A stretch of DNA of 64,000 nt from a bacterium (GTDB lineage: Bacteria; Patescibacteriota; Minisyncoccia; Phycocordibacterales; UBA9973). Position 1 is the stretch's first letter. Every line of letters starts with the position of its first letter. The notes below the pieces were generated by a model. The model had not been told where the DNA came from and searched no databases. It saw only the letters and a program-made list of their open reading frames with translations. Positions 34,749 through 57,084 of the stretch are shown here, piece after piece. Position numbers and translations under genes: made by a program. Where the stretch lies: assembly GCA_037130335.1 (NCBI GenBank), contig JBAXTD010000001.1, forward strand, positions 103,419-167,418. The letters are read 5' to 3'.

Positions 34749-34792
34749 CACGCACAAAAAAATCCGCTTAAAAGCGGATTTTTTTGTGCGTG
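34749..34792. terminator. Bidirectional terminator.
   Basis: cacgcacaaaaaaatccgcttaaaagcggatttttttgtgcgtg, a nested perfect palindrome. Confidence 0.75.
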
Positions 34793-34797
34793 TATGT

Positions 34798-36732: not shown

Positions 36733-36821
36733 TTTGTATGATTAAAATTTTATAAAAGACTCTATATATTGTAACAGGGGAATGGCAGGTTTGCAAATCG
36801 TGAATTCTATTGTATAATAGA

Positions 36822-37232: not shown

Positions 37233-37240
37233 GAAATATG

Positions 37241-37268
37241 AGAAAAACGCCCTAATTAGGGCGTTTTT
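37241..37268 (+). terminator. Terminator after rnpB.
   Basis: gaaaaacgccctaattagggcgtttttc. Confidence 0.7.
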
Positions 37269-37287
37269 CTATACTTCAAAACACACC

Positions 37288-37316
37288 TTGACTTTTGTCA
37301 ATAAATCTGATACAAT
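37288..37316 (+). promoter_or_regulatory. Sigma70 promoter, TTGACT-17-TACAAT.
   Basis: Near-consensus hexamers about 90 bp upstream of the ATG at 37407. Confidence 0.6.
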
Positions 37317-37406
37317 ACGCGCGAACCTTATTGATTCTAAAAAACTAAAAAATCAATATTCTAAACATTTATAACTAAATAATCAAAAACAAAAAAAACG
37401 ACAGAC

Positions 37407-38936: not shown

Positions 38937-39630
38937 AAATAATAAATGGACGCATCATAATAGCTTCGACTTTCTTAAATGAAAGCCGGAGCTATTTTTT
39001 TTTATTCTATTTTTATAGTATCTAATTTACTAGACACATTTTTTATATTTGATATACTCTCTGTGTGAGTATGGTTCTCCAATGAATTATTACAAACAAT
39101 TGCCTACGCAAGGCCCGCCTCACGGCGGGTTTTGTGCTTTTGGGAGAGATGGTATATACTCTAAGTACGTTCCCACATATCGTGGTGAACGTCTCCACTC
39201 ACATAGGCAATTGTGTTGGAGTTCGGACACGCTCACCACAATGTGTGGAAGCAAAACAAAAAATCGTTCATCGAAAGATGAGCGATTTTTTGTTTCTAAT
39301 TTTTTAATAGTATTAAACATAATTTTGTGAATATAATTTTGCGTAATAAAAAAAATTTTTGAAAAATAAAAATAAATTAATTAAAAAAATAAAATAAAAT
39401 AAAAAAACTTTTTCAAAAAAATATTTTTTATTTTATTTTTAAAAAAGTTTTCCACATATTTCGTAAAAAATAATTGCGAATAATTTTTGATTGTAGGATA
39501 ATTACTGTAGTTGCGATTTGATTAGTGCGCAAAAATTTTTTGGAAAAATATTTTTTAAATTTATTTTCAAAAAAAGTTGCGCGGTCGAAATCAAACGCCA
39601 CTTAATAAAAATAATAAACTCAAAAATTTT

Positions 39631-39702
39631 ATGGCAGCAAAAAAGAAAGCAAAAAAGGCAGCACCAAAAAAGAAGGTTGCAGCAAAAAAGAAGCGAGCAT
39701 AG
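39631..39702 (+). CDS. Candidate micro-protein, 23 aa, Lys/Ala-rich (MAAKKKAKKAAPKKKVAAKKKRA).
   Basis: ATG-initiated ORF followed immediately by two hairpin terminators (39722-39755, 39766-39784). Too short for the ORF track. Confidence 0.35.
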   Translation: MAAKKKAKKAAPKKKVAAKKKRA

Positions 39703-39721
39703 TTTTATTTGTTCCGCTCAA

Positions 39722-39755
39722 GAAAACAACTCCTCACGGAGTTGTTTTCTTTTGG
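39722..39755 (+). terminator. Rho-independent terminator after the micro-ORF.
   Basis: gaaaacaactcctcacggagttgttttc followed by ttttgg. Confidence 0.6.
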
Positions 39756-39823
39756 GGCGGGTTTTCGCGAAGCGAAAACCCGCCATTCCAAAAACCTTCT
39801 TTTTGTGCTAGAATTAAGGTCTT

Positions 39824-42337: not shown

Positions 42338-43914
42338 AAAATAAAGTCGATTTCTACCTTGTTGTCTCCGGCTCGAATCTCCTTGATAATACTGCGTAAA
42401 ATCATCTTTTTCTCATCCAGTTCCATCTTGTCCCAGCAGGCATCAAAATCCTTCAAAGAGGCCACTAATTTGCGTGTTACAGCCACTTTCTGTGCGGTAG
42501 TGGTTGAGAGTAGAGATAAGCGTTCCACCTCCACACGGCTTTTTTGGATTTCCTGCCTAATCCTTGAAATATGCGCATCCAGTTGCTCCAAGGTTTCGAC
42601 TCCTTTTTCATAAGCTTCTTGATGTCGTTGCTCTCTGGCTGGACCTGATTCAATATCTCGGTTTAATCGAGCAATCGTTTTTTCTCTGTCATTTTCTTCC
42701 TGGTTGCCAGCCGTATAAGTTATATTTTCTTGGACCTTGGGGTGCGAATACAGATTTTTTATATGATCCAAAACTGCGCCTTCCAACTTGTCGGCACTCA
42801 TCACTCTTTGAGAGCAAATGCCTTTGTATTTGTATCCCGTGCAGATATATTCAAAAGTCGTTGTATCTTTCCATTTTGGATTTTTGTCAGATCTCTTGTG
42901 GCGACGTTTTTGATAGCCAACGCCGCTCTTGCAGCGGATGCATTTTGCAATTCCGGTGAGAACCCCTAGGGACCTCCCAGCTCCGCCTTTTGCGTGCTTG
43001 GTCCTCCCAGCTCTAATTTCTTTGACGAGGTTAAAAATAGTTTCGTCTACGATGGGGGAGTGTTCGCCATTTCCCACATACCCAACCTTGCCACGTCTCT
43101 GCCATTCCTTATTTTTCTTGTAGTCGGCATGTCTCCAGCCCCACCACACTTTGCCTGTGTATGTCGGATTGGCCAAAATATATCTGATGGTTTGGATACT
43201 CCAATTTATTCCATTGGGAGCGCTCCATCCCTTTTTATTCATTTCGATCGCTATTTTTCTGTCGCCATTGCCCCGAGCATATTCATTGAAGATAAAGCGG
43301 ATTTTCTGCGCTTCATCCTCGTCAACGATGACCGTCCTTTTTATTTTATTACCCTCCAGTGTTCTTACGACTTTGTATCCGTAGGGCACGCGGTTTGGTA
43401 TTTTCCCTTCTTTCGCCTTTATCATTTTTCCGCCCTTCATTCGACGATTGATGGCCGTTCGTTCGAGATCGGCTTTCATGTCTGAGATTGTCTCCATGAT
43501 CGTCGCCGAATCATTGTCGTCTGGGTCGTACTCGCTGACCGACTTTGGCTCGACAGGGGTGTTGATCGAGTAGGTTTGAATCCCGAGCCCTTTTAGTTCT
43601 TGCCGGATGATGGCGGCCGCATCTTTGTTTCTGGCAAATCTGTCATAATCCTTTACTATGATGAGGTCAAATTTATGTTCTCGCGCATCCCGCATCATGG
43701 ACTGCAATCCATGTCGCTCCTCCGTCAAATGACCGCTCACTCCTTCGTCTGTGTATTCCTGAAAAAATATCCATCCCTTTTCAAGTATCACCTTGTGGCA
43801 ATCTCTAATTTGCTGGGGGATTGAAGTTTTTTTCTGAGCTTGCTCTTGAGTACTCACTCTTCCATACGGAGCGACTCTCAAGCTCGTATTCACTGCACCT
43901 GCATTTCTATCCAT
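42334..43914 (-). CDS. Large serine recombinase.
   Basis: N-terminal resolvase domain with the catalytic Ser in YGRVSTQEQ, plus a recombinase domain, Cys-rich zinc ribbon (CIRCKSG...C) and C-terminal coiled coil. Its stop overlaps the secA stop by 2 nt. Confidence 0.8.
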   Translation of the reverse strand: MDRNAGAVNTSLRVAPYGRVSTQEQAQKKTSIPQQIRDCHKVILEKGWIFFQEYTDEGVSGHLTEERHGLQSMMRDAREHKFDLIIVKDYDRFARNKDAAAIIRQELKGLGIQTYSINTPVEPKSVSEYDPDDNDSATIMETISDMKADLERTAINRRMKGGKMIKAKEGKIPNRVPYGYKVVRTLEGNKIKRTVIVDEDEAQKIRFIFNEYARGNGDRKIAIEMNKKGWSAPNGINWSIQTIRYILANPTYTGKVWWGWRHADYKKNKEWQRRGKVGYVGNGEHSPIVDETIFNLVKEIRAGRTKHAKGGAGRSLGVLTGIAKCIRCKSGVGYQKRRHKRSDKNPKWKDTTTFEYICTGYKYKGICSQRVMSADKLEGAVLDHIKNLYSHPKVQENITYTAGNQEENDREKTIARLNRDIESGPAREQRHQEAYEKGVETLEQLDAHISRIRQEIQKSRVEVERLSLLSTTTAQKVAVTRKLVASLKDFDACWDKMELDEKKMILRSIIKEIRAGDNKVEIDFIF

Positions 43915-44092
43915 TTTTAATTTCTAAAAATCGTAATTTTTTTAGTCCGGACATACTAAAAGGACGGTCCTGGCTGCCCAATATACTTGCTCCGTAGGAG
44001 TAGACATAGTGGCAGGACCGCCCTTTTAAGGTCGCTATATCTACTTTATTCCTACACTTTCGTATATCAGGCAGCATAAACATTATACCACA

Positions 44093-44296
44093 TTAAGCCT
44101 CTTTTTGGAGCTCTCTTTGGACGATTTTGTTGATAAGACTAGGCATCAATAGAGACAATTTTTCAGCAAGAGAGTCAACGTCCGTGCCAGCAAAAAATAC
44201 ATCCACAGATGGTCCGCTCTCATCATTGGTCGTATTCTTTTTGGCTGGTACGATTGAGGTCATGTAAGTGTTACTTGTCCTATTTATTTCTTGCAA
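44093..44296 (-). CDS. Hypothetical small protein (67 aa).
   Basis: ORF overlapping the integrase 3' end by 17 nt. No domain. Confidence 0.25.
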   Translation of the reverse strand: MQEINRTSNTYMTSIVPAKKNTTNDESGPSVDVFFAGTDVDSLAEKLSLLMPSLINKIVQRELQKEA

Positions 44297-45392
44297 GAAT
44301 GTCTCGAAAAACCCGAAGTTCTTCTTCGGTCAGGGAACCGTCCTTGTGTTCTCCTTGTGAATTCTTCAGGCTTTTGACGATTCTGATGGCCTCGTTCGCG
44401 GTCATGTTGCCGTACCCATACGAACCGAATGTCGTGGCGACATCTTCGTGTCCCAAGTTGAGGCTGACTGCCTTCTTTTCCTCCTCGGTCAGTCGCTTCT
44501 TGCTCACGATTGCCACCGCCAAATTCCTGAACGAGTGTGGATGATAGTAAGGCATACCGGCTGAGAGGTATCGTTTCTGGAGAATCTTCCGCGCCGATCC
44601 GGAACTGCTCCAAAAATCTGTACCGATCGTTCCTCTGCTGTAAGCGCTCTCGCCAGTTTCAAGATCATTCTGTGTTGTAGGGAAAATCGGATCGTCCGGT
44701 CCGAAGCTCTTCGACTCCAGATATTCGTACCACTCCACGAAGTACCGCTCCGGGTCGTCCCAGCCGAGAGGGAAAAACGTACACAGGATACGTTTCGAGC
44801 TTTTGGTTTTGACGCCGTCCGCGGGGTTCTGGTCGATAACTTTTTCCTGTTTATCAAAACTCTTCATCTTGAGCGTAATGATTGCCGAAATGCGGGCACC
44901 TACCGTAAAGGCAAAACAGATGAGCGCTCGATCGCGCATGTCTATCTCATTTTTGATTTCAATGCCCTCTATGAGCTTCCGGATTTCCTCGAATGTGGGA
45001 ATCTTTTTGGTTGTGCTCTGTCGGGCGATGCGAGTATCCTTTTTGGAAAGACGTAAGTATTCAATATCGCCTTTTGCCATCTTGCTTTTGTACCCTGGCT
45101 GGTCGGAGAGCCATTCGAAAAACTTCTTTACACGGCGGAGATAGTTGTATCGGGTGACAATAGCGATTTTTCCCGTCGGAGTTTTTGACGATTTTGTCTC
45201 AAGCCACTCGACGAACGCCGTCGCCTTCATTTTGTTGAAATTGGCGAAGTCCTCGTTCCCTGTAAAAAGTTGCCACTTGGCAATCGCTCCAGCAAAGACG
45301 AGGATAGAGCCCTTGGTGAACCCTCGGGCACCCAGGAGTTGCTCTAAAAAGTCCCGCTTCGCCTTTTCATTTTCGTATGGTATGTCTGTCAT
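44280..45392 (-). CDS. Tyrosine recombinase / phage-type integrase.
   Basis: SAM-like N-domain. Catalytic R...HPHSFRN...LGHEDVATTFGSYGY (R, HxxR, Y). Confidence 0.8.
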   Translation of the reverse strand: MTDIPYENEKAKRDFLEQLLGARGFTKGSILVFAGAIAKWQLFTGNEDFANFNKMKATAFVEWLETKSSKTPTGKIAIVTRYNYLRRVKKFFEWLSDQPGYKSKMAKGDIEYLRLSKKDTRIARQSTTKKIPTFEEIRKLIEGIEIKNEIDMRDRALICFAFTVGARISAIITLKMKSFDKQEKVIDQNPADGVKTKSSKRILCTFFPLGWDDPERYFVEWYEYLESKSFGPDDPIFPTTQNDLETGESAYSRGTIGTDFWSSSGSARKILQKRYLSAGMPYYHPHSFRNLAVAIVSKKRLTEEEKKAVSLNLGHEDVATTFGSYGYGNMTANEAIRIVKSLKNSQGEHKDGSLTEEELRVFRDILARNK

Positions 45393-45398
45393 AGCCTG

Positions 45399-45632
45399 TT
45401 ATTTCAGTGGTAACGGGGTCGGTTTGAGCGGTTTCAGGGTTTTTGCCATTCTTTCCAAGAGCATGATGTTGGGCAGTAGGTCATTCGCCGCCTGAAACTG
45501 CTTTTTCTTGACGCAAACTTTTTGGATTTTTTTGAGATGTTCGATTTCCGACTCAAGCGCGGAGAGAACGTATGGGATATTTTTAAGACTGATGTTGAGG
45601 CTTATTTTTTCTTCGGTTGATGGAGTTTCCAT
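45399..45632 (-). CDS. Hypothetical small protein (77 aa).
   Basis: Lies between the xis-like gene and the integrase. Confidence 0.3.
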   Translation of the reverse strand: METPSTEEKISLNISLKNIPYVLSALESEIEHLKKIQKVCVKKKQFQAANDLLPNIMLLERMAKTLKPLKPTPLPLK

Positions 45633-45776
45633 GGTGTTAATTTCTGAGATTTTGTTTGTAATAATGCTCGACTGTTTGATTCATTTTTGCTGACTATTTT
45701 TGTCGTGATTTCGGTATGTGCGCCCACGGTTCATAACAGACATTTACGTTAGAAGAGAGGGTATACCATAGTCCTT

Positions 45777-46130
45777 TCAGGAGGGTCTGATTGTCCGGCT
45801 CATCTTCCTGTTGCAGACACGGCATTCGCCTGTTTTTCGGTTCGCCAATTTTCTAATCGTGCCCCGTTTTGCTAGTCGTGCGGCTCTGCATTTGAAGCAG
45901 TAAAACTCACACCGCTTCAACTTCACTTTTTTCTTGGAATCTTTTTTTCGCAAAAATTCTTTGATGTCGGAGCCCAGCAGGAGGATCGGTTTCTTGCTTC
46001 CTTGGACGATTGGCAGGCCGCTCTCGATCCAGCGTGAAATGGTTTTTTCAGTGGCGTCCACATCGTTCGATAGTTCTTTGATCGTGTAACTGATATGGTC
46101 ATATATTTTTTGACGGTTTATCCGTGTCAT
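45777..46130 (-). CDS. Excisionase-like HTH DNA-binding protein with a C-terminal zinc ribbon.
   Basis: YTIKELSNDVDATEKTISRWIESGLPIV HTH (Xis/MerR-type), plus CEFYCFKC...CRVC. Confidence 0.5.
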   Translation of the reverse strand: MTRINRQKIYDHISYTIKELSNDVDATEKTISRWIESGLPIVQGSKKPILLLGSDIKEFLRKKDSKKKVKLKRCEFYCFKCRAARLAKRGTIRKLANRKTGECRVCNRKMSRTIRPS

Positions 46131-46141
46131 CGGATTCCGCT

Positions 46142-46426
46142 CTATTCCGAGTAGAGTTTGTTCTTTAGCGCCTTCATGTGGTCAAAATACGACCGGGCTT
46201 TGACCTCCAAGCGGTTCGAGAAATACTTGTCAGTTACTTCCTCGATGCCACTTTCCTTTTTGAACATAAACAGAGCTTTGCGCGGATTGCTTTTTTCAAC
46301 CGCTACAAGCTCAAAATCCGCACATAGGAGTGCGGCTGATACACCGAGGTCGTACGTTGTCCACACGAAATCGGGGTCATCGAGCGGGATGGACCCGCGA
46401 GATGCTTTCTTTGCTTTGTTACTCAT
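46142..46426 (-). CDS. Hypothetical protein (94 aa).
   Basis: Immediately downstream of the 582-aa gene on the same strand. Confidence 0.35.
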   Translation of the reverse strand: MSNKAKKASRGSIPLDDPDFVWTTYDLGVSAALLCADFELVAVEKSNPRKALFMFKKESGIEEVTDKYFSNRLEVKARSYFDHMKALKNKLYSE

Positions 46427-46597
46427 CGTAATTTTAGCTAGGTTTTGTAATATGAGAGTGTTCCTGCTCTCAATTACAGTTTTGATTTTTTGGAATGTTC
46501 TGCGTATTTCTTGTGATTTCTTGGAAACGCAAAATCCACCTTTATTTCAAAGGTGGATTTTTTCTAGAGAGAGCGATTTTTCAAGAAGTCACAGGAT

Positions 46598-48346
46598 TTA
46601 GCCCATCTTGTTATTGAAGCTCACTCCGACGGCTCGTACTATCTTGATGAGTGGTTTTCCATTATCTTCCGTTTTTGCTATTTCGGCGTATCGTAGAAAT
46701 CCGTTGCTCTTATCGGTGAGATTCGTTTGTATGAACTTCCGCATTTCCTCGTCATTTTTCGATTTTAATTTCGGAATCCGGCTCTTTACTTCGGCGAATA
46801 GTTCCTCATATTTTATCTCTCCGCCCTCGGGTCGGGTCGCATATAAAGCGCTGAATGTCTTGTAGTAATCAGCATCTTTTGAAAGGCCAAGCACGCCGCC
46901 CTTATACTTAAAATCGTCGCCATTTTTTGTGATATAAAAAAGATTTTGCGGATTTTTTTCGTACTTATTTAGTACCTCAATTTTCATTACGCCATCTTTT
47001 TCGGGAGTGACTTTTTTAGTCCTTTGCTCTGAAATGAGCTTTGTTATCTCTTCGAGCTGTTTTTCTTCGTCTGTCATTTCAGATTTTTCCTCGCCAAGAA
47101 TACATAATTTTGTAATCTCGCTATGCGTGCTATACAGCGATGGCCTGATTGTATCCCAAGACAGAACAGGACCAAGCGTCTCCGTCGGATTTTTAGGGTC
47201 GCCGTTCCATTCCATTTCGGCAGAATACAGATCGCCCTTAAATTGCTTGCAAGGATTGATACGATAGTGTTTCAAGGACAAACCGCGCGTGATGGTTTCG
47301 ATTTTATTTTTGAGCAAAAGGTAGGCGCTGTTCAGCTCCTTTGTGGGGTGGGTGATGTTCTCGCAAAAAATCTCAAGAATATCCATATATGCCTGGTGGT
47401 GTTTTCTCAATTCCTCGATTACATCTTTTTTTGCGAGCGCTGTCGCTTTGTCCTGCAAAATATCTTTTTCCTCCCATTCGAGTAAGACGTCGTCTGGTAA
47501 AATTGGCTGTTCTTCAAAACTTGTTATGATGTACTCGTTCCCGAGACGCTCGACAAGAAAATTATCATATTTCAAATACTTTTCTAGTTTTACAGCAAGC
47601 TCATCCGTCCTCTTCTCGTTGGCGTTGTGATTGAGCGGATGGAGGAGTGTTGTGATTATTTCTTTGATGGTCCAGTTTGCGTTGATGGCTTTTTTACGGA
47701 TAGTTTGTAGAACATCGTCAAAGTTGTAAAAAGAATTTTCTTCAAACAAGTCATCCACTAAGTAGGCGTGGATTACTTTTTGATTATAGAGCGCAGGTTC
47801 CTCCTCTATGATCGGTGATATAATTTTTCTTATAGCAAAATTGGTGAGGTAATTGTTGATTTCCTCCGCGACCAATTCAAGAACCTTCTCGCTGAAAGTG
47901 CCACTATTTATATCGGGCAATTCTTTGACTTCATCTTTTGTTGTTTCTTCCGAATTGATTTCCTCGGTGTCGTCGGTGATCGGCACGATTTTTGCAATGC
48001 GTTCGTCTGATTGTATCCGTAGGTTTTCGTAAGAAAGTACCTGGTTTAGCCCGTCAATAAAATTTTTTCGTAATTGCAAATCGGTGAAATTTAGTGGATG
48101 ACAAAACTCTTCAAGAACGCTAAAAAGTCCATCCTCTGTCGGTATTTTACCGAACGCATCAAGTGTTATTCGCCATTTGGCGTAGAGTGCTACGTCGGTA
48201 GAGATATGAGCATCCGTAAAGACATTCACGATCTCGTTTGTCGTAAATTGTCCCGCTATTAAGCGAGCGATTTTTTCTTTGACTCGAACACTGATTTTCA
48301 TAGTTGAGAGTAATAGTAATTTTCTTGCACAATTGAATCCTAGCAT
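46598..48346 (-). CDS. Large uncharacterised island cargo protein (582 aa, mostly helical).
   Basis: No recognisable catalytic motifs. Divergently transcribed from the AbiE pair. Confidence 0.5.
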   Translation of the reverse strand: MLGFNCARKLLLLSTMKISVRVKEKIARLIAGQFTTNEIVNVFTDAHISTDVALYAKWRITLDAFGKIPTEDGLFSVLEEFCHPLNFTDLQLRKNFIDGLNQVLSYENLRIQSDERIAKIVPITDDTEEINSEETTKDEVKELPDINSGTFSEKVLELVAEEINNYLTNFAIRKIISPIIEEEPALYNQKVIHAYLVDDLFEENSFYNFDDVLQTIRKKAINANWTIKEIITTLLHPLNHNANEKRTDELAVKLEKYLKYDNFLVERLGNEYIITSFEEQPILPDDVLLEWEEKDILQDKATALAKKDVIEELRKHHQAYMDILEIFCENITHPTKELNSAYLLLKNKIETITRGLSLKHYRINPCKQFKGDLYSAEMEWNGDPKNPTETLGPVLSWDTIRPSLYSTHSEITKLCILGEEKSEMTDEEKQLEEITKLISEQRTKKVTPEKDGVMKIEVLNKYEKNPQNLFYITKNGDDFKYKGGVLGLSKDADYYKTFSALYATRPEGGEIKYEELFAEVKSRIPKLKSKNDEEMRKFIQTNLTDKSNGFLRYAEIAKTEDNGKPLIKIVRAVGVSFNNKMG

Positions 48347-48456
48347 CTTTTTCTATGAAAACTAAGTGTTTTTTGTTGTTCTCAAAACTTGCTGTTATTT
48401 TAAGATATGCTAAACTGTTTCCAAAGAGTGCTATAAATAGCATCTTTTGGAAATAT

Positions 48457-49083
48457 ATGCAATATCAAGAATTACGTCAAAAACTCAAGGATTTCAGTGT
48501 TTTTTCGCTTTCAGACATTCGAAAGATCGAATCTGATTTTCATCGTCGTCGCTTGAATGAATGGCAAGAAAAGGGTTATATCAAGAAGCTCCGTCGCGGA
48601 TACTATATTTTCTCCGATCTCTTAATCTCCGAAGAGACGCTTTTTCTCATTGCCAATCGTCTTTATAATCCCTCGTACGTATCACTTGAGATGGCGATGT
48701 CGCGCTACGGATTGATTCCTGAGTCGGTCTATGGCGTGACTTCAGTTGGGAGTAAAAAGACCGCCGATTTTAAGACACCGATAGCAACTTTTCTATATCG
48801 CAGTATCAAGCCGTCGCTTCTTTTTGGCTACAAGCTGGAAGGAACAAAGAAGCAGAAATATAAGATCGCCGAGATTGAAAAGGCGGTGTTAGATTATCTC
48901 TATTTCAACAAACATTTATCCGCTGACGATGATTTTGAGGGGATACGTTTCAATGGCGAGGAGTTTCTAAAAAAGGCTGATATGTTGAAGTTCGAGCGAT
49001 ACCTCAGAGTATTCAAGAATAAAAATTTAACAGAGCGGGCTGGTGCGCTTATCAATTATATAAAGAATAACAACCATGCTTAG
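48457..49083 (+). CDS. AbiEi-family antitoxin / transcriptional regulator (type IV TA / Abi).
   Basis: N-terminal wHTH MQYQELRQKLKDFSVFSLSDIRKIE...GYIKKLRRGYYIFSD typical of the AbiEi N-domain. Start placed at the internal ATG 48457. Confidence 0.65.
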   Translation: MQYQELRQKLKDFSVFSLSDIRKIESDFHRRRLNEWQEKGYIKKLRRGYYIFSDLLISEETLFLIANRLYNPSYVSLEMAMSRYGLIPESVYGVTSVGSKKTADFKTPIATFLYRSIKPSLLFGYKLEGTKKQKYKIAEIEKAVLDYLYFNKHLSADDDFEGIRFNGEEFLKKADMLKFERYLRVFKNKNLTERAGALINYIKNNNHA

Positions 49084-49852
49084 CCTTCAAGAAATCGAAG
49101 TTCAGTATCCAGAAAACCTACGCCCCTTCAAGCGCAACATTTTGCGTGAGTATTTGCAATACAAGATTTTGGAGATCATCTTCAAATCGTCTCACGCGGC
49201 TAAGCTTTCCTTTCTCGGGGGTACGGCGCTCCGAATCGTCCACAACAACAGTCGCTTCTCGGAGGATCTTGATTTTGATAACTTCGGGCTGGAAGAGAGT
49301 GAGTTCAATGCTATCGCCGAAGAGGTAAAAGCAGGGCTCGATGCTCTTGGATTGAAGACGGAAATCAATACTGTGATGAAGGGAGCATATCGTTGCAACG
49401 TCAGACTTCCTGAAGTGCTTTTTGTGAATGAACTATCTCCCTTGCAAGAGGAAAAGATATTGATCCAGATCGACACGGTCCCACACCAGTATCCATATAC
49501 GCCTGACAAAAAAATCCTCAACAAGTTTGACGTGTTTTCGGAGATCTTTGTCACGCCCGTGTCGCTCTTGCTTTCACAAAAAATCTGGGCTGCCATCAAT
49601 CGCAAGCGAGCAAAGGGTCGTGATTTCTACGACATCGTCTTTCTCTTTTCTTTCACTAAACCTGAGTACCCGTATTTGATGCAGAAGATCGGTGCGGGCG
49701 ATGGGGAAGCGGTTCGACAAAAGCTACTCGACTCTATCCAAGACCTAGATTTTAAGATGCTTGCTGACGATGTTCGTCCGTTCCTATTCAATCCGGCTGA
49801 TGCACAGAAGGTTGAGCTTTTCAGGGAATTTGTAGTTCAAGTAGAGTTTTAG
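49076..49852 (+). CDS. AbiEii/AbiGii-family nucleotidyltransferase toxin (DUF1814).
   Basis: LREYLQYKILEIIFKS...LSFLGGTALRIVHNNSRFSEDLDFDNFG is the hallmark N-terminus. Overlaps AbiEi by 8 nt. Confidence 0.7.
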   Translation: MLSLQEIEVQYPENLRPFKRNILREYLQYKILEIIFKSSHAAKLSFLGGTALRIVHNNSRFSEDLDFDNFGLEESEFNAIAEEVKAGLDALGLKTEINTVMKGAYRCNVRLPEVLFVNELSPLQEEKILIQIDTVPHQYPYTPDKKILNKFDVFSEIFVTPVSLLLSQKIWAAINRKRAKGRDFYDIVFLFSFTKPEYPYLMQKIGAGDGEAVRQKLLDSIQDLDFKMLADDVRPFLFNPADAQKVELFREFVVQVEF

Positions 49853-49867
49853 TATAATTGCAAATAT

Positions 49868-50641
49868 ATGAATTTCGAATTACCAAAATTACAACGCATG
49901 CCAGATGAGCCATCAGGCAGTGCTGATAATGAGACAATAAAAATAGGAAAACAGTATAATGAGTTTGCTGAAAATTTCGCTGATAAACATAAAAATTTAG
50001 ATGAAATTACGCAAGCTTCTTTTCAAAAAGCACTATTAGGAATAGTGTTTAAAGACAAAAAAGTTATTGATTTAGGGTGTGGAGATGGTTACGATTTATT
50101 GAAACTGCAAGAAAAAGGAGCGATTGTTTACGGTCTTGACGCTTCTGAAGAAATGATAAAACTTGCAAAGGCAAAGAACAGCCAGGGTAATTTTGAGAAT
50201 GGTTTTTTTGAAAATATTCCTTATGCCGATGCTTCTTTCGATGTTGTTATAAGTAAATATGCAATGCAAACAAGCAAGGATGTTCCTAAAATACTAGAGG
50301 AAGTTGGGCGAATTTTAAAACCTGGCGGAAAACTTGTGTATGTAGTAACTCATCCAGTCAGACAATTTATGGAGAAAAAGAAGGCGAACAAGGATTATTT
50401 TGAACAAGAGGTAGTAGATTCTGTTTTGTTTGACGGTGCAATTACTGTTCACGAGCCATCGCACACCCTCGCTGAATATCTTAATCCAGAATTTTTAAAA
50501 AATTTCGACTTAACTTTTTACGAAGAAAAATTTGATCCAAGTAATGCTGAAATGGTAGAAGGCTCAAGTTACCCAGCTTTTCTTTGTGTTGGAGCAAAAA
50601 GAAAAAATGCGAGTGAATCAACAATTTCTCAAACAGCTTAA
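49868..50641 (+). CDS. Class I SAM-dependent methyltransferase.
   Basis: VIDLGCGDGYD motif I, DASEEMI, LKPGGKLV. Confidence 0.6.
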   Translation: MNFELPKLQRMPDEPSGSADNETIKIGKQYNEFAENFADKHKNLDEITQASFQKALLGIVFKDKKVIDLGCGDGYDLLKLQEKGAIVYGLDASEEMIKLAKAKNSQGNFENGFFENIPYADASFDVVISKYAMQTSKDVPKILEEVGRILKPGGKLVYVVTHPVRQFMEKKKANKDYFEQEVVDSVLFDGAITVHEPSHTLAEYLNPEFLKNFDLTFYEEKFDPSNAEMVEGSSYPAFLCVGAKRKNASESTISQTA

Positions 50642-50756
50642 TACCAAGTTAGAACTATTGTTATTCAATAATTAACTCAACAAAACCCTCCCTAGACGGC
50701 ATTAAAAAAGACCATGATTGAAATCATGGTCTTAAGTATCTTCGTCTAGGTGCACC

Positions 50757-51548
50757 TTATGCTCTTACTTTTTCAAGCAGGTTCTCCGTTGTAAATGGCA
50801 GTTGTAGATAATGAGGATTATCATTTGCCATCCACCCCGCAGCGATCACTCGCTGTTCGGGTTTTTTCGCCACTAACAATTTCTCAAAAACATCTTTTAC
50901 ATCTTTGCTTTTTACTTGCCCGTTAATCTCGCCTATAAGCAAGGTGATATCAGGATTTTTTTCAGCAAATGTAAGGGGGGCGTTTTCAGTACTCTCATTA
51001 GGGACAAAAATTACATTGAAGTCTGCCTTTAAGCTCTCTTCCAGTCTTTTTTTGTAGTCGTCATTGACTCCAATTAACATGAAAGATTTCTTAGTAGAAG
51101 CTTTCGGCTGCTCGCCAAGTTCGGCGTTCTCGATGGACATAAACCCTTCCGCTGCTGCCAGCCAGTTTTTGTTTCCCTGGTTGAAGCCGCTTACGAATGA
51201 GTTTTTGCCAAGGAGGCTGTCCATCGCCCAAGCTATGGGGCTCGCGTGATGACTGATGTCAGTCAATATGGCTACATGGGGAACGCCCGTGTTTTTTGCC
51301 AATATTGAAAGTATCAGACCGTACGGAGTGTCCTTACCGATTTCGGCTGTAGGGCCGACGCCTTCCTTCTCTCCCGGCATCATCAGATCCGTCAGCAGGA
51401 TGTCGAACTTCCTGGTTTTTAACAAGCCCACCGCCATGGAGTACATGGGGCAGCAAGTCAGGATGACATTTTTGCCGTTGAATTGTTTTTCTGCCGCATC
51501 AAGGTTTGCGCGCGTGTCGTCTACTACTAAGATTGCTATCTTTTTCAT
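50757..51548 (-). CDS. Orphan response-regulator receiver (REC) domain protein with an uncharacterised C-terminal half.
   Basis: ILVVDD (acid pocket) and DILLTDLMMPG (phospho-Asp) motifs. The C-terminal ~140 aa is unknown, possibly a second degenerate flavodoxin-like fold. Confidence 0.55.
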   Translation of the reverse strand: MKKIAILVVDDTRANLDAAEKQFNGKNVILTCCPMYSMAVGLLKTRKFDILLTDLMMPGEKEGVGPTAEIGKDTPYGLILSILAKNTGVPHVAILTDISHHASPIAWAMDSLLGKNSFVSGFNQGNKNWLAAAEGFMSIENAELGEQPKASTKKSFMLIGVNDDYKKRLEESLKADFNVIFVPNESTENAPLTFAEKNPDITLLIGEINGQVKSKDVKDVFEKLLVAKKPEQRVIAAGWMANDNPHYLQLPFTTENLLEKVRA

Positions 51549-51793
51549 ATTTGTTGATTTTAAGTTTGAAATTATTGGTTTATTTCAACCTCTCTGTCGG
51601 GAGGGGCTCAAATAAACCAATAAAGCTTAAAATCAAAGGTTATTAAGGATTTCTTAAATCTTGATTATATCATAGCATGTTTATATATAAAAGTCAAGGC
51701 TAATTCAGCCTCGGCTTGGCCAATTGTTGACTTTCTATAAATATATGTTATCCTATAAAAAAATCACTCTTTCAACTTTTAAATAGCACTTTT

Positions 51794-52111
51794 ATGAAGA
51801 AAATAATGGTTTTCGGTATTTTCGTTTGCTGCATCGCGGCCAGTTGTTCTAAGCGCCCCCAAGTTGTTAAAGTCCTGCCTGGCAAGCTCGTTCGAGTGAT
51901 CGGCAACGATGTATTCTGCCAGTTAAAGCTCGAAGTCGATACTTCACTGAAAGGAGGATTCGGCATTGTTGCCACCTCCTACAACGTATTCGATCACGAC
52001 GCCGAGAAAGGTGACAGTATGCGGGTGGCTCTGTATTCTGACGGGTCCGTCGAAGCTCATACGTACCGCATGCGTACGGACATCATGATCAGGGAGGATC
52101 GCGGGGACTGA
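51794..52111 (+). CDS. Small secreted protein or lipoprotein.
   Basis: Signal peptide MKKIMVFGIFVCCIAASCS. Confidence 0.4.
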   Translation: MKKIMVFGIFVCCIAASCSKRPQVVKVLPGKLVRVIGNDVFCQLKLEVDTSLKGGFGIVATSYNVFDHDAEKGDSMRVALYSDGSVEAHTYRMRTDIMIREDRGD

Positions 52112-52255
52112 TGCCAAAAGGAAAACGGGTGCGCCTATTCGTAAAAGTGCCCACAAATTAAGCCCTTGGAAAAACCAAGGCACTGTCGCAAGGTAATTGC
52201 TTTGCCTGATGAGTCCATGAGGACGAAACAGCTGTTCTTTACATAAAAAATCTAT

Positions 52256-53053
52256 ATGCTCAATTTCAAGGAGTTCCAAGCCAAAGCTCGGGAACTATTC
52301 GGCAAACTGAACTGCGATCCGGCCGGTGACGACCCCATCACATTTCTGCACTCCCTTCCCTGGGAGATACCGAACGGTCCTGCTTTTTCCGAAGAGGAAG
52401 TGGCACGAATGAATATCGACTTCGACGTGCGCGGCTGTTTCGGCCGGGCACTCAAAGCCGCAGTGTTGGTTGAGAAGTATTTTCCGAACGAAACTTTTTA
52501 CAACGGCGAGGTGCTCGAAGACTTGCTTCGCTCCATGCTAATGAAAAAAGTGACACCGGAAAAATGGCATGACGATACCTACGTCGCTGAGATTCTCCAG
52601 TATGAGAATCCGCACGTGGCGATCGTCTGGAACGATTCGCAGTTTGATCCAATCTTCAGTCTTCTGACTGACAGGCCGGAAACGCTCAAGCATCCGTCAA
52701 TATTGAAACATAGCCAATGGGAAGGATTGTACTGCTACTATCTCGTAAGCAGTGGCATGCTCTTGTTCAGACAAAAGCAAAATCCAAACCTATACTTGCA
52801 AGCTCTCAAGCAAGCCGAGGCGATCTGCCCGCACATGCTTCTCGTCAAAGAAAATCTGGTGAGCGCACTCTGCGCCCTGAACAGATTCGACGAGTCGGTC
52901 GCGATTGCGAAATCGCTGGTCGGAAAGCGCAAGGACGCGAAAATGCTATGGTTCCTATTGCAGATGACCGGAGACCCGGCGTACAAAGATCGGCTCGTAC
53001 GCGAGTATGACATCCAAATGCTTCACTTCTTAAACAAAGCGTTCATACCATGA
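52256..53053 (+). CDS. Hypothetical protein (265 aa, high GC).
   Basis: Helical, TPR-like C-terminus. Translationally coupled (ATGA) to the next ORF. Confidence 0.45.
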   Translation: MLNFKEFQAKARELFGKLNCDPAGDDPITFLHSLPWEIPNGPAFSEEEVARMNIDFDVRGCFGRALKAAVLVEKYFPNETFYNGEVLEDLLRSMLMKKVTPEKWHDDTYVAEILQYENPHVAIVWNDSQFDPIFSLLTDRPETLKHPSILKHSQWEGLYCYYLVSSGMLLFRQKQNPNLYLQALKQAEAICPHMLLVKENLVSALCALNRFDESVAIAKSLVGKRKDAKMLWFLLQMTGDPAYKDRLVREYDIQMLHFLNKAFIP

Positions 53054-53235
53054 CACCATCGGACTTGTCACCCGCTATGCGTAAGGCCTACGAGGCCCTT
53101 CCGGAAAACGAAAGAGAAGCGTTCCTTGAAGAGTATGCACACTGGTACGGCGAAACCGTGCGAGGAAACATATCTCGCATAATGGCACGCAATTTTTCGC
53201 ACAATGTTGGGAAACATGTGACGGAAGCGCAGTAA
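53050..53235 (+). CDS. Hypothetical small protein (61 aa).
   Basis: Its start overlaps the previous stop. Confidence 0.35.
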   Translation: MTPSDLSPAMRKAYEALPENEREAFLEEYAHWYGETVRGNISRIMARNFSHNVGKHVTEAQ

Positions 53236-53349
53236 AGAAATTGAAATTCCCAAAGGATAACGGACGAGCCTATATGTAAAATCGTCCACATTTTAGAGCC
53301 CATGAGGAAACTCGTGGTCTCTGAATGAAATTGTACTTTCACAAAATTT

Positions 53350-53395
53350 TTATTGATGACCAGAGAAGGTCACCACCTTTTGTGGTCATCAATAA
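53350..53395. promoter_or_regulatory. Perfect 12-bp inverted repeat (ttattgatgacc N22 ggtcatcaataa), operator-like.
   Basis: Read directly from the sequence. Sits at or over the 5' end of the 53407 gene. Confidence 0.4.
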
Positions 53396-53406
53396 AATCT
53401 CAAATA

Positions 53407-53979
53407 ATGGAAATTATATATAAGAGTAATTCGACTATGGACTTTGCCACTCGCGTAAAGGAAACCATAACATATCTGGACACGGCGATTTTCGAAAAGC
53501 CCGCACGAGTGTCAATAAATACTGACGTGCGTTACGCGAATTTCGGCACTGGTGGATTCATGTCAAAAAGATTGCTATTCAGATTGCTTGGATTATCTGA
53601 TGACTATGTCATCTTTGAAAGAAGCAAGAAAATGGAAATTATAATGAAGATGGACTTCATGGCCACCTGCCTCGCCGCGCACGAAGTTCGGCATCGGTTC
53701 CAACATTACAACAAGAAGACGCTCATCACTTTTGATTTTCTACAGAAGAATAAGATTCTTACTGAACCGGCACTCGCGCACATTCAGAAAGGAAACTATG
53801 ATCTGTACGGAAAAGACAAAGAGATGTATGGGCGCGAGTTTGATGCCTCGGCGATCGAGACGATAATCTCCGGTTGCTCCAAGGCTAAGAATTTCACGAT
53901 GAACGACGTGATTGATTTGATAAAGTGCAATGAAAGCACAATTAGTCAGATTGTCTCTGGAATTGCTAAGCGAAGGTAA
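53407..53979 (+). CDS. Hypothetical protein.
   Basis: ORF from 53353. The internal ATG at 53407 was preferred because the palindrome covers 53350-53395. Confidence 0.4.
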   Translation: MEIIYKSNSTMDFATRVKETITYLDTAIFEKPARVSINTDVRYANFGTGGFMSKRLLFRLLGLSDDYVIFERSKKMEIIMKMDFMATCLAAHEVRHRFQHYNKKTLITFDFLQKNKILTEPALAHIQKGNYDLYGKDKEMYGREFDASAIETIISGCSKAKNFTMNDVIDLIKCNESTISQIVSGIAKRR

Positions 53980-54029
53980 GTTGTTCTCAGTCAAGAAAAT
54001 CCCAAAGCCAACCATTTCGGTTGGCTTTT

Positions 54030-54272
54030 TTACTTTTCTATTTTGGTAAAGCGAAACGCGATAAATGAGAGGTAGAAAAGAACGAGCATTTCGATCCATG
54101 TCATCCAGAGCGGATAGGTCATGCCGCCGAGGCTGATTTCAAATCCGGTCATGATACGGAGCAGGTGAATAAATCCGCCGAAGAAAAAGAGGACTGTGGA
54201 AATATAGAAAAATATTTTCTTGTTCATGGATACAAGAATAGCATATCTAAAAAACGCCATATGTGTGTACAC
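54030..54272 (-). CDS. Small membrane protein (80 aa, 2 TM).
   Basis: Hydrophobic helices. Confidence 0.3.
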   Translation of the reverse strand: MYTHMAFFRYAILVSMNKKIFFYISTVLFFFGGFIHLLRIMTGFEISLGGMTYPLWMTWIEMLVLFYLSFIAFRFTKIEK

Positions 54273-54286
54273 ATTACCACGGTCTA

Positions 54287-55215
54287 CGTATTGTAACCAA
54301 TAGCTTCACACCACCTGCATTGGAGTTAAGTAATTAATCCCTCCATGAACTCGTTTGTTGTTGTAATATTTTAAATACTTTTTAAGTGCACAATTAATTT
54401 CCGAAACATCATTTGAAATTTTGTCTAAACATTCTTCTTGTACTGTTCGATTGAATCTTTCAACATGTGCATTGTCATTCGGTTTTCCGATTCGGGTATA
54501 CCGATGATTTTTCTGTATTTGAGTTACAAACCATTTCCCAAACTCCGGTCCGTGATCCGATTGTAGCATTTTGAATTTGAATGAAGAATGTCGTTGCGCT
54601 TCATTCACAAACCGTATTGTGGTTTGTGAATTCATTTTTGCATATGCTTTTGCATATACCCAACGTGAATATGTATCAATGATGACAAAAACATACAGAC
54701 GTTTCTTCTCCGATATCATCCGATGGATTGTATCAATCTCTAGTAAATCGCCTGATTTCAAGGCGTATGGGCGGTCTACATGCGGATGATATCGTTTCCA
54801 AGGACTTCGTTTCTTCGTTAAATATTTTCGATCGAGTGTTCTTTTTACAGACGAAAGAGAAACTGTTACTCCATCATTTTCTAACTCTTTGTGAACTGCT
54901 TCTGCATATCGATTGTGTTCCAATCTTTTCTTTACGATTTTTCTGACGATATTTTCTGGTAGGGCATTCGGATGTGATTTTGGTTTTGAACTTTTTGTTA
55001 GTATTGGGTGGTCTCCAATGATTCTTGATTTTCGTACCCATTCGGTAATCGCTGTATGATGGAAACCCAGATATCTTCCGACCTTTCTTGCACTCCAACC
55101 TTTATGGACGAGACGCGCTGCGTCTCGTCTGATTCGTGGCATGTTTTTGTTTGATGTGTATGGCATGCTTGATATGGTAATCCAGCGGGTGGTGCCAAGC
55201 TATTGAACCTATACG
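54287..55215 (-). mobile_element. IS481-like insertion sequence (929 bp) with ~38-bp imperfect terminal inverted repeats and a 6-bp target-site duplication GGTCTA.
   Basis: Left end cgtattgtaaccaatagcttcacaccacctgcattgg versus the reverse-complemented right end cgtataggttcaatagcttggcaccacccgctggatt. GGTCTA at 54281-54286 and 55216-55221. Confidence 0.7.
54306..55166 (-). CDS. DDE transposase (HTH plus rve integrase core), IS481/IS3-superfamily type.
   Basis: N-terminal HTH. DDE triad at IDTIH, QSDHGPEF and ERFNRTVQEE. C-terminus is YYNNKRVHGGINYLTPMQV. Confidence 0.8.
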   Translation of the reverse strand: MPYTSNKNMPRIRRDAARLVHKGWSARKVGRYLGFHHTAITEWVRKSRIIGDHPILTKSSKPKSHPNALPENIVRKIVKKRLEHNRYAEAVHKELENDGVTVSLSSVKRTLDRKYLTKKRSPWKRYHPHVDRPYALKSGDLLEIDTIHRMISEKKRLYVFVIIDTYSRWVYAKAYAKMNSQTTIRFVNEAQRHSSFKFKMLQSDHGPEFGKWFVTQIQKNHRYTRIGKPNDNAHVERFNRTVQEECLDKISNDVSEINCALKKYLKYYNNKRVHGGINYLTPMQVV

Positions 55216-55290
55216 GGTCTATTGACATTCTATACATTATATGATAATATACCAGCGATAAATGTTCACTCACAATTAAATATATAACTC

Positions 55291-56037
55291 ATGAAATCAA
55301 TTCTTTTTTGCACCGCTATTTTGATTGTTACTCTTTCTGCTTGTCAGAATGCAAAAGACCCATATGCAGCGACTGTCGATTTTTCAAAACCCGCTGCATC
55401 GAATGCCGATTTTATATTTTCCACCTGCCAGGGTAAGACCCTTCTTGTGGCAGACGCCGCAAGCGCACAAAAAGTTAGTGATAACCTGAAAGCGAAAACC
55501 GGCGGAATATTGTCGGACATGGGAATTGGGAATGCATTTGCGCTTACTTTGCAGGGAAAAACATATTTATGTACTGCAAGGCACGGCGCGGTTGGATTGG
55601 AAAAATATACCAGAACCATCGGGGCGGATATTGCGTTGATAGATTATAACGCCATACCGAACCATGATCTTGGTACAGGATTTCAACTGACCAGCTCGTA
55701 CGAAATGGATACGACCATCCGCACAGGAGACTCGATATTCATTAAGGGATACCTCTTTACCAAAGAGGGAGAGCTGCAAACCGTAACCATCGGCGGCAAA
55801 GGAAAAATAATAGACAAGACTGAGTACGGGAAAAATGTAAGTTTTGGTACTAACGCGCAATACATGCAGCAGCATGAGCTCGTTATCAAGCTTGGTGAGA
55901 ATGTTGAATTGGCAGGTCTTTCTGGCTCTCCGGCATTCAATGCACAAGGGAAGGTGATCGGTGTTTACTCTGGGAGAACCATAGACCAGGACCATGGCAC
56001 TGATACCTACTACATCCGAGTCTCGCTATTTAACTGA
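55291..56037 (+). CDS. Lipoprotein, trypsin-like (S1) serine peptidase fold.
   Basis: Lipobox LSAC. His region CTARHGAV and Ser motif GLSGSPAF. Confidence 0.45.
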   Translation: MKSILFCTAILIVTLSACQNAKDPYAATVDFSKPAASNADFIFSTCQGKTLLVADAASAQKVSDNLKAKTGGILSDMGIGNAFALTLQGKTYLCTARHGAVGLEKYTRTIGADIALIDYNAIPNHDLGTGFQLTSSYEMDTTIRTGDSIFIKGYLFTKEGELQTVTIGGKGKIIDKTEYGKNVSFGTNAQYMQQHELVIKLGENVELAGLSGSPAFNAQGKVIGVYSGRTIDQDHGTDTYYIRVSLFN

Positions 56038-56048
56038 TCTGCATCGGG

Positions 56049-56075
56049 CGACACAATTAAGACCATACTTCTGTA
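56049..56075 (+). terminator. Rho-independent terminator.
   Basis: aagaccatacttctgtatggtctttt. Confidence 0.6.
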
Positions 56076-56232
56076 TGGTCTTTTCTTATAGAGTTTTCTT
56101 AACTGCACGCCGACACCCGAATATTTTTTGTGTGCTAGAATAGGGAACATGACCACCGAAAAACAGACTATTTTAGCTTTCCCATTAGTACAACATGTCA
56201 AGAATTGTCACGGGAAATAAAAACTTTTTTTT

Positions 56233-56553
56233 ATGGAATCAAATAATGTAAAACTAGTTATATTTGTTCCACTTTCCCATGCCGACATTGTACGTGAAGT
56301 CTTGGGGAAAACGGGCGCTGGAAAAATTGGCAATTATGAATTCTGCTCATTCTCTACTCGAGGAATAGGGCGTTTTCGTGGAAACAAAAATTCGAATCCA
56401 TCAATCGGACAAGCTGGAAATTTTGAATCAGTCGAAGAAGAACGAATTGAAGTTATTGTTCCAAGAAAAATTTTAAATGATGTGATTGAAAAAATAAAAG
56501 CAGTGCATCCATACGAGGAAGTTGCGTATGATGTATATTCACTCGAGAATTAA
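56233..56553 (+). CDS. NIF3/YqfO C-terminal-like small protein.
   Basis: Ends ...AVHPYEEVAYDVYSLEN, resembling the NIF3-family C-terminus. Confidence 0.35.
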   Translation: MESNNVKLVIFVPLSHADIVREVLGKTGAGKIGNYEFCSFSTRGIGRFRGNKNSNPSIGQAGNFESVEEERIEVIVPRKILNDVIEKIKAVHPYEEVAYDVYSLEN

Positions 56554-56556
56554 TAT

Positions 56557-57084
56557 ATGAAAAAATTTCTTTGTAATCAAAATGAAATTTTCTGGCTCCC
56601 AAAGGAATTCAAAGCCGATGTTGAAACCTATCTTTCAGATGAATTGCCTCCGCTTGAATTGTGTCCATCGTCATATGCGCTCGTATTCAAAGACAGAGCG
56701 CTTCTCCAGACTGATTTACGAGAAGGAGAACGACCAGCAAGAACTTTAGATATCCCCGGTGGGCATATTGATGAAGGAGAAACACCCGAGCAGGCTGTTA
56801 TTCGAGAAATATTTGAGGAAACTGGTGTTCGTGTTCAGTCTCTCAAGCTCGTTGCCTATAAAAAAATAACAATACATACTCCAAAACCTGAAGGGTATAA
56901 ATATCCATACCCAGTAAGTTATATGATATATTATATTGCAGAATTTTCCGAAGAAATTCCCTTTGAAGGTAATGCTGAAGTCCACGGTCGCGTATGGCTT
57001 GAATTAGATAAATATCAAAAATCTCCATGGTATATGAGTGAAAAAATTATGGTTGATGAGATTATTAAAGAATATTTAAAATAA
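56557..57084 (+). CDS. NUDIX hydrolase.
   Basis: Nudix box GGHIDEGETPEQAVIREIFEETGV. Confidence 0.7.
   Translation: MKKFLCNQNEIFWLPKEFKADVETYLSDELPPLELCPSSYALVFKDRALLQTDLREGERPARTLDIPGGHIDEGETPEQAVIREIFEETGVRVQSLKLVAYKKITIHTPKPEGYKYPYPVSYMIYYIAEFSEEIPFEGNAEVHGRVWLELDKYQKSPWYMSEKIMVDEIIKEYLK

Follow-up and report, generated by a model that had tools for sequence, protein, structure and literature searches.

A cassette with a large serine recombinase gene within the 3' end of secA in a Patescibacteria bacterium

The window analysed here is a stretch of 64,000 nucleotides from a bacterium of the Patescibacteriota (Minisyncoccia; Phycocordibacterales; UBA9973; GenBank assembly GCA_037130335.1, contig JBAXTD010000001.1, positions 103,419 to 167,418 of the forward strand), for which a reading made from the sequence alone had described att-like direct repeats at two places, one of them at the 3' end of secA. 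The segment between these two junctions is very probably an integrative element that was inserted into the last codons of secA, most likely by its own large serine recombinase (LSR) in a reaction between an attachment site of the element (attP) and one of the host (attB), which left the hybrid sites attL and attR at its ends (Table 1, numbered from the first letter of the window). The relatives of its SecA also place the organism in the Patescibacteria. An intact LSR gene abutting secA, a raised G+C content, a tyrosine recombinase gene, AbiE genes and an insertion sequence (IS) all support the earlier view that the segment is a mobile element. We infer that the LSR, rather than another enzyme, was the integrator, and likewise that the element may be mobile at the present day.

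All three stretches quoted in the sequence-only reading are present in the window: tacaagaagtgtcatatgaatgggaactag at 42308-42337, which forms the 3' end of the 837-aa open reading frame (ORF) of secA (C-terminus ...GSGKKYKKCHMNGN, that is ...KKYKKCHMNGN-stop), gtcaagaattgtcacgggaaataa (also given as GTCAAGAATTGTCACGGGAAATAA) at 56197-56220, which is translated as VKNCHGK-stop, and GAATAGGGAAC (gaatagggaac) at 56138-56148. The secA gene is chimeric, being native to ~42312 and element-derived over its last 25 nt. The codons for the final Cys and His zinc ligands of the SEC-C finger come from the element, and the motif is still intact (CPCGSGKKYKKCH) and recognised by Pfam. The target ORF is kept open by element codons (KCHMNGN-stop), and the native end (NCHGK-stop) is found at the distal junction. 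The element would in this way restore zinc-ligand residues of an essential protein that are otherwise removed by its own integration.

The right copy had been taken for the ancestral SecA end and the left copy for a C-terminus supplied by the island. In a comparison that had been set beforehand as the one to decide this, the ends of 80 SecA relatives from species-representative genomes were examined. The ending HMNGN was detected in 0/80; the closest relatives end in ...CHGK, and the SecA proteins of L002 and L039 end exactly in KKYKNCHGK. An LSR of the window's family was found within 10 kb of secA in none of the 80. The nearest relative, P0122, is the second member of the 90%-identity cluster of the window's SecA; it ends in ...GSGKKFKNCHGK (...KKFKNCHGK), and no recombinase follows secA on its contig, L103. 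This contig is ~85% identical at the nucleotide level to window positions 30746-37395 and 38815-42321, and the homology ends at 42321, the last base of the core shared by the two junctions, past which L103 reads CGGTAAATAA and the window TATGAATGGG. In this island-free relative the terminus is native and synteny with the window is broken at the junction. Island-free relatives end like the right copy and not like the left one, which supports both the canonical, native character of the former and the origin of the latter from the island. Downstream of secA, synteny among the 80 relatives is almost nil, being limited to L060, in which a homologue of the 106-aa gene that follows the island lies ~660 nt downstream of secA, and to L038, with an MFS gene; synteny is therefore unable to define an empty site. 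Separately, SecA of L072 (11270-11314) was seen to end in KWKRCHMYSDLARK, an unusual CHM-type terminus with no LSR of the window's family within 10 kb, which could be a remnant junction or belong to a different element.

The genomic context was looked up for ten LSR homologues with 47-80% identity to the window LSR. Seven are convergent against the 3' end of a secA gene: P0002, P0007, P0008 and P0016 (80%, 70%, 69% and 67% identity) overlap its stop by 4 bp, like the window LSR, and P0028 at locus L110 (61%), P0041 (52%) and P0076 from Daviesbacteria (47%) are separated from it by gaps of 74, 126 and 20 nt, respectively. Six of these seven secA genes end in the pattern CH[ML]N... or CCM... (CHLNRN, CCMDRN, CCMKGN, CHMNV or CHLNREPQG) and not in CHG...; with the window included, such a terminus marked occupancy in 7/8 integrated elements examined. 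The LSR module alone is common to the related elements at the DNA or protein level, and their cargo is entirely different. At L110 (11677-11760) a terminator-like hairpin lies between LSR and secA.

The other three homologues (P0005 in L086, P0010 in L092 and P0023 in L116) are not beside secA, and each is followed directly after its stop by a contiguous P-O-P' site, which is read from its sequence as a putative intact attP. The site of L086 is TTTCTCCATTAGTATAGCATTTC-AA-GATGTGTCATATGAATAGGAATTAG. The right half of these free attPs matches the P' arm of the window attL, a sequence like the window's replacement terminus adjoining the LSR stop in all three, and their left half matches the right-junction arm CTTTCCCATTAGTACAACATGTC of the window, with agreement at 17/22 positions for L086 (binomial P ~8e-6 for at least 16). 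That the arms are joined in L086, L092 and L116 and lie 13.9 kb apart in the window is what integration predicts. The same secA junction in related elements and the intact attPs that join arms split in the window support the earlier proposal that both junctions belong together. L092 also carries genes for a TrwB-like coupling protein and a Replic_Relax protein, and L116 one for a DUF87 ATPase; elements of this type suggest plasmid-like or conjugative forms.

An independent complete case was found in L099, with attL in secA (KKFKKCHMNV-stop) and two P-arm sites ~10 and 11 kb away, and here too, in another lineage, the native end of secA has been moved to the far junction. In L099 (and in L100) the attR-like sites stand in tandem at ~1489 and ~317 on the reverse strand of the locus, the P arm being followed by KKCHGNV-stop or KKCHGV-stop; in L099 a Fic-domain gene lies between the two sites and a NUDIX gene follows. 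The tandem sites of L099 suggest that the secA site may be occupied serially, in tandem or by composite elements.

The hybrid anatomy B-O-P' and P-O-B' is seen at the window junctions. attL is made up of a B arm of native secA (42279-42310), a predicted central AA (42311-42312) and a P' arm from the element (42313-42344), and attR of a P arm from the element (56168-56199), a predicted central AA (56200-56201) and a B' arm that comprises the native secA end and intergenic spacer (56202-56233). When rebuilt from these arms, attP (ACAACATGTCAAGAAGTGTCATATGAATGGG, also given as CATTAGTACAACATGTCAAGAAGTGTCATATGAATGGGAAC) showed a dyad symmetry of 15/22 at one centre only, the AA of C-AA-GAA (binomial P 5e-5), with 3-9/22 at other centres, and the natural attPs of L086 (12/22) and L092 (14/22) have their symmetry peak at the same AA. 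The site is short, forms an imperfect dyad around a central dinucleotide and stands directly after the LSR stop; its outer symmetric motif is TTCCCATT...AATGGGAA, where TTCCCATT, in the P arm of attR, repeats the AATGGGAA of P' in inverted orientation. The rebuilt attB (...CCATGCGGTAGCGGCAAAAAATAC-AA-GAATTGTCACGGGAAATAA; full sequence GGCAAAAAATACAAGAATTGTCACGGGAAATAA, also given as GGCAAAAAATACAAGAATTGTCACGGGAAATAAAAAC) is translated as ...PCPCGSGKKYKNCHGK-stop, the terminus type of P0122.

The gapless core common to both junctions is CAAGAA(G/T)TGTCA, with 11/12 nt identical (42310-42321 vs 56199-56210) in parts of only 6 + 5 nt, and beyond it there is zero identity. At 42316/56205 the G/T difference goes with the P' arm, G being the base of the free attPs there; the crossover would therefore fall left of this position, inside CAAGAA, in agreement with the AA centre. 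From the symmetry we predict AA (42311-12 / 56200-01) as the exact crossover dinucleotide. The junctions are not att direct repeats of the classical kind, as had been supposed, and are better described as hybrid att sites from the reaction of a serine integrase, for which a crossover of 2 bp is predicted; they are similar because attP is like the coding sequence of secA on either side of this point. The extension of the shared core by gggaaMtaR was likewise not borne out: it needs a 6-nt gap and is not homologous by descent, as GGGAAC in attL is part of the P' half-site of the element and GGGAAATAA in attR is the native Gly-Lys-stop. The outer symmetric att motif accounts for the GGGAAC that had been noticed at attL, which belongs to a half-site of the integrase and does not copy the native Gly-Lys codons. 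As for gaatagggaac, which had been offered as a weaker third similarity, few near-matches occur in the window, so that it is somewhat unusual; the intact attPs of L086, L092 and L116 showed no counterpart upstream of their P arms. It was rejected as an accessory site or half-site for want of such recurrence and is treated as fortuitous. A 23-aa ORF at 56150-56220 (MTTEKQTILAFPLVQHVKNCHGK-stop) is made by the fusion of the element P arm and the stranded secA end, and is probably a by-product of the junction and not a gene; in the L086 attP a stop codon interrupts the corresponding frame.

On the proposed mechanism, a circular element with attP directly beyond the LSR stop (...CTTTCCCATTAGTACAACATGTC-AA-GAAGTGTCATATGAATGGGAACTAG...) would meet a host attB formed by the SEC-C zinc-finger end of secA (...GGCAAAAAATAC-AA-GAATTGTCACGGGAAATAA, encoding GKKYKNCHGK-stop), and the LSR would cut both at the central AA and swap the half-sites. 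Thereby attL (B-O-P') would provide secA with the element codons K-C-H-M-N-G-N-stop, restoring the last two zinc ligands (Cys, His), and attR (P-O-B') would keep the native N-C-H-G-K-stop, stranded at a distance of 12 nt from the host gene that follows.

The LSR gene abuts secA, its TAG stop overlapping the new TAG of secA within the palindrome CTAG. Its product has an N-terminal resolvase catalytic domain (PF00239, E = 1e-25), a recombinase domain (PF07508, 3.8e-19) and a zinc ribbon (PF13408, 5.8e-8) in a large C-terminal part, and the nearest relatives in the PDB are the N-terminal domain of the TP901-1 integrase (E = 1.7e-9) and the C-terminal domain of the A118 integrase (E = 1.3e-7). The catalytic-serine motif YGRVSTQEQ was located at residues 17-25, where 27 aligned LSR homologues do not vary at Y17, R19, V20, T22 and Q25 and show conservation of at least 90% at S21. 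Altogether 153 homologues were retrieved at E <= 1e-20, and their named sources place them in Patescibacteria groups. In IMG/VR a single-protein search led to no relatives of the LSR, and a profile search gave only LSRs with 22-26% identity, so that there is no evidence for the elements being phages.

Upstream of the LSR gene, the closest LSR subclade shares a structured leader RNA, of which copies were found in L085 (132-283), L086 (1473-1626), L087 (9842-9977) and L093 (9830-9979), besides the window. It folds into four helices, a 15-bp helix (AAAAGGGCGGUCCUG/CAGGACCGUCCUUUU) forming either a pseudoknot with two nested helices or an alternative to them. Over the five distinct sequences, pairing holds in 98.5% of cells, and compensatory changes on both sides were seen at 8 pairs, compared with ~42% paired cells and 0-2 such pairs in controls with a slid register; the G-U pairs speak for the sense strand. 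The leader matched no Rfam family, and a covariance-model search recovered only the sequences from which the model had been built. With five sequences we regard the leader as a lead and not as a demonstrated RNA class. A small 56-aa ORF further upstream has weak homologues (32-67% identity) at the same position in L085, L086 and L087 and no match in Pfam or PADLOC; it may encode a regulator or a recombination directionality factor. Together with the HTH_17 protein it makes up the candidates for the latter function, the link to excision being putative for either.

Within the island the G+C content is mostly 0.41-0.51, with dips to 0.37-0.39 near 50-51 and 54-55 kb, and it is 0.31-0.40 in the flanks. 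Besides the genes of Table 1 the island encodes a methyltransferase, a receiver-domain protein and a trypsin-like protease, and several of its ORFs have no family match in Pfam. The IS has 21-nt inverted repeats that are 86% complementary and a transposase of 286 aa. Among related elements, the cargo of L087 (1-6000) includes a type I restriction-modification (R-M) system (HsdM/HsdS), GmrSD and Prim-Pol, and that of L110 (1000-7000) an OLD-like TOPRIM ATPase with a UvrD helicase and a DNA methylase with HNH; from its domains the OLD-like ATPase and UvrD pair is read as a candidate Gabija-like system. Outside the island, the 16S rRNA gene at 31691-33316 measures 1626 nt against a model of 1533 positions, and the RNase P RNA at 36824-37234 measures 411 nt against 367 model positions, which suggests insertions in both. 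Insertions in 16S rRNA and RNase P RNA are common in bacteria of the candidate phyla radiation (CPR).

Table 1. Features of the window and putative free attP sites of related loci.
Feature	Position	Strand	Basis or remark
Integrated element, ~13.9 kb	42313..56201	.	bounded by attL/attR; raised G+C; gene content
secA	39824..42337	+	ORF/translation; Pfam SecA_DEAD, SecA_PP_bind, P-loop_SecA, SecA_SW, SEC-C at residues 817-834
attL (B-O-P')	42279..42344	+	att-site alignment, dyad-symmetry scan; L103 homology ends at 42321
Element-encoded replacement SecA terminus GAAGTGTCATATGAATGGGAACTAG	42313..42337	+	completes K-C-H-M-N-G-N-stop
Large serine recombinase (LSR), 526 aa	42334..43914	-	Pfam Resolvase + Recombinase + Zn_ribbon_recom
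Conserved structured leader RNA, ~150 nt	43935..44087	-	upstream of LSR gene, after TGnTATAAT-like -10 box
Small 56-aa ORF	44093..44263	-	tblastn matches in L085, L086, L087 at equivalent position; gene call in L097
Tyrosine recombinase, 370 aa	44280..45392	-	Pfam Phage_integrase; cargo or second nested module
HTH_17 (excisionase/MerR-like) protein, 117 aa	45777..46130	-	Pfam HTH_17 E=3.9e-4, below curated cut-off; weak PADLOC mad1-like
AbiEi/AbiEii abortive-infection toxin-antitoxin pair, cargo	48355..49852	+	PADLOC AbiEi E=9e-63, AbiEii E=9e-93; Pfam AbiEii
IS inside island	54298..55205	-	21-nt inverted repeats; rve-family transposase 54306-55166, Pfam rve + rve_3
attR (P-O-B')	56168..56233	+	att-site alignment; P arm 17/22 identical to L086 attP P arm
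Displaced native secA terminus GAATTGTCACGGGAAATAA (..N-C-H-G-K-stop)	56202..56220	+	matches KNCHGK of P0122/L103, L002, L039
First host gene 3' of island, 106 aa	56233..56553	+	ORF; starts 12 nt after displaced secA stop
Putative intact attP sites	L086:3275-3330, L092:11665-11720, L116:11644-11700		just after LSR stop

Several points weigh against the insertion of the element by its LSR. The short repeat is by itself at chance level and was not used as evidence: with up to one mismatch the core 12-mer occurs at two places only in the window, shuffles average 0.35 matches per 12-mer, a 30-nt junction holds ~20 possible 12-mers, and the junction pair was absent from the 20 largest direct-repeat families listed in a repeat scan of 41800-57000. 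The observation gains significance only through the external evidence of the adjacent LSR gene, the related attP sites and the island-free relatives. The crossover dinucleotide is predicted from symmetry and the position of the G/T mismatch, not from experiment. L103 is only ~85% identical in DNA, differs from the window in the genes downstream of secA and is not a true empty-site allele, and scans of metagenomes and viral contigs, limited by the collections covered and by the use of exact patterns, led to no same-species empty attB and no excised circle of this element: the metagenome scan for AATACAAGAAKTGTCACGGGAAATAA gave four matches, all SEC-C ends of unrelated genes or organisms with at most ~68% identity, or none, to the body of the window secA and no empty site among them, and the exact-match scan of viral contigs for the rebuilt attP gave zero matches. 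The L110 locus, with its 74-nt gap, is an exception in that its SecA has a different C-terminal type (KKYKNCGLNGTDEHNRLMAQKK-stop). Finally, no recombination directionality factor was identified in the island, which may be composite or partly decayed, given the tyrosine recombinase and the IS.

The alternative that survives best is that integration took place as described, but that the island has since gained an IS and a second recombinase module and become fixed, a composite remnant unable to excise, which may lack a directionality factor. The IS, the heterogeneous G+C content (0.37-0.51), the second recombinase, the integrated state of 4/4 contigs with this exact LSR and the failure to find an excised form all speak for it, whereas the LSR ORF is of full length with conserved catalytic residues, both hybrid sites retain the C-AA-GAA centre and intact arms, and the LSR module still has its conserved leader and small ORF. 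We consider a fixed remnant rather unlikely.

A further alternative is that the tyrosine recombinase integrated the island, CAAGAAkTGTCA being a duplicated core and the LSR mere cargo. A gene of the Phage_integrase family is indeed present inside the island, ~2 kb from attL, and adjoins the gene for the excisionase-like HTH_17 protein. It is the LSR gene, however, that abuts the junction, with its stop inside the att arm; the identity block of just 6 + 5 nt contains a mismatch, and the site shows dyad symmetry of the kind that serine-integrase attPs typically have. By tblastn, moreover, the tyrosine recombinase was detected only in L097 and L098, in which the element of the window itself was assembled again; no match came from the related elements with the same secA junction. 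As an internal gene that is absent from the related secA-targeting elements, it was rejected as the integrase, and this alternative is very improbable. Least credible of all, and contradicted by the evidence at hand, is that the likeness of the junctions is a coincidence, with HMNGN native to the lineage and VKNCHGK-stop a chance intergenic frame: the chance-level 12-mer match, its low rank in the repeat scan and the want of independent support for the 23-aa ORF would agree with it, but HMNGN ends 0/80 relatives, the nearest relative ends in KNCHGK with a homology break at 42321, HMNGN-type codons also adjoin LSR genes far from any secA, and homologues of the P arm (56168-56199) occur in attPs elsewhere.

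Beyond the insertion itself we advance, as a possible reading that falls somewhat short of probable, a clade of LSR cassettes that extends across the Patescibacteria (from Paceibacteria/Nomurabacteria-like groups to Daviesbacteria), with the secA end as a docking site like that of the staphylococcal cassette chromosome (SCC) and with the integrase of the window's subclade controlled by a hitherto undescribed, pseudoknotted leader RNA. If this were true, unrelated cargo (defence, conjugation or replication genes) would be exchanged at the secA end, sometimes stacked in tandem, each cassette consisting of an LSR gene and an attP resembling the secA end; and with attB in a nearly universal motif, the LSRs would be ready-made tools for site-specific integration in CPR bacteria. 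As attB lies in the conserved SEC-C motif and LSRs down to 47% identity are found at the same gene end, the site may be a phylum-wide hot spot and may serve gene exchange throughout the phylum, anti-phage defence cargo included. SecA ends of the CH[ML]N or CCM type could flag occupied sites in metagenome-assembled genomes. Genetic tools for CPR bacteria are scarce, and mobile elements in Patescibacteria are poorly characterised; for a serine integrase that belongs to this group, the present analysis provides an exact attB/attP pair and predicts its crossover. In the full-text literature, of which coverage was incomplete, no description was found of secA as an attachment site of serine recombinases or prophages or of LSR elements in CPR bacteria, which is weak evidence for novelty. 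The event is of a known kind, at a target (secA) not found described and with a well-defined attB/attP pair.

Tyrosine-integrase islands at the 3' ends of tRNA, tmRNA or protein genes are alike in that the copy brought by the element regenerates the gene end and the original is left at the other junction. They differ in enzyme family and chemistry, and the window has no long identical core (6 + 5 nt, 11/12 nt in the gapless alignment), an internal tyrosine recombinase and a regenerated terminus that is not identical to the native one (CHMNGN vs CHGK). The serine integrase of mycobacteriophage Bxb1 has its target at the groEL1 3' end (PMC1470463, PMC3642061). Likenesses are the short attP and attB (<50 bp) with a non-palindromic central dinucleotide and an attB within the 3' end of a conserved gene of the chaperone/secretion type, integration altering the C-terminus. 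In contrast to Bxb1, the window attP resembles the coding sequence of the target and restores the functional Cys-His of the motif, and elements of the window type are not recognisable phages (no IMG/VR relatives), some of them carrying genes of the TrwB/relaxase type. The A118 and TP901-1 integrases (4KIS, 3BVP) share the domain architecture with the window LSR, whose recombinase, zinc-ribbon and coiled-coil region matches A118, and they share an attP beside the integrase gene with imperfect dyad symmetry, whereas sequence similarity is remote and target gene and host phylum differ.

With Bxb1, the closest counterpart is SCC/SCCmec, integrated in staphylococci by CcrAB or CcrC at the 3' end of rlmH (orfX), with the enterococcal cassette chromosome and tandem defence cassettes included in this group. 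In SCC/SCCmec the Ccr LSRs target the rlmH 3' end, defence genes are found among the variable cargo, and tandem arrays are formed (PMC6222049, PMC11470126). As there, the final codons of a conserved housekeeping gene receive a cargo island through an LSR and the reading frame stays open, what is carried differs between elements and extends to anti-phage defence (AbiE in the window, type I R-M and GmrSD in L087, a putative Gabija-like pair in L110), and one site may be occupied in tandem or by composite elements (L099 with its two attR-like sites, compared with the SCC arrays at rlmH; PMC11470126). The window differs in its target, the SEC-C codons of secA and not rlmH, in its host, a member of the Patescibacteria, and in having a single LSR gene that abuts the att site with overlapping stop codons. 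The nearest solved relatives of this LSR are the TP901-1 and A118 integrases; its likeness to Ccr is put forward as one of analogy, and the element in the window, with secA as its target, is an SCC analogue and not a member of SCC.

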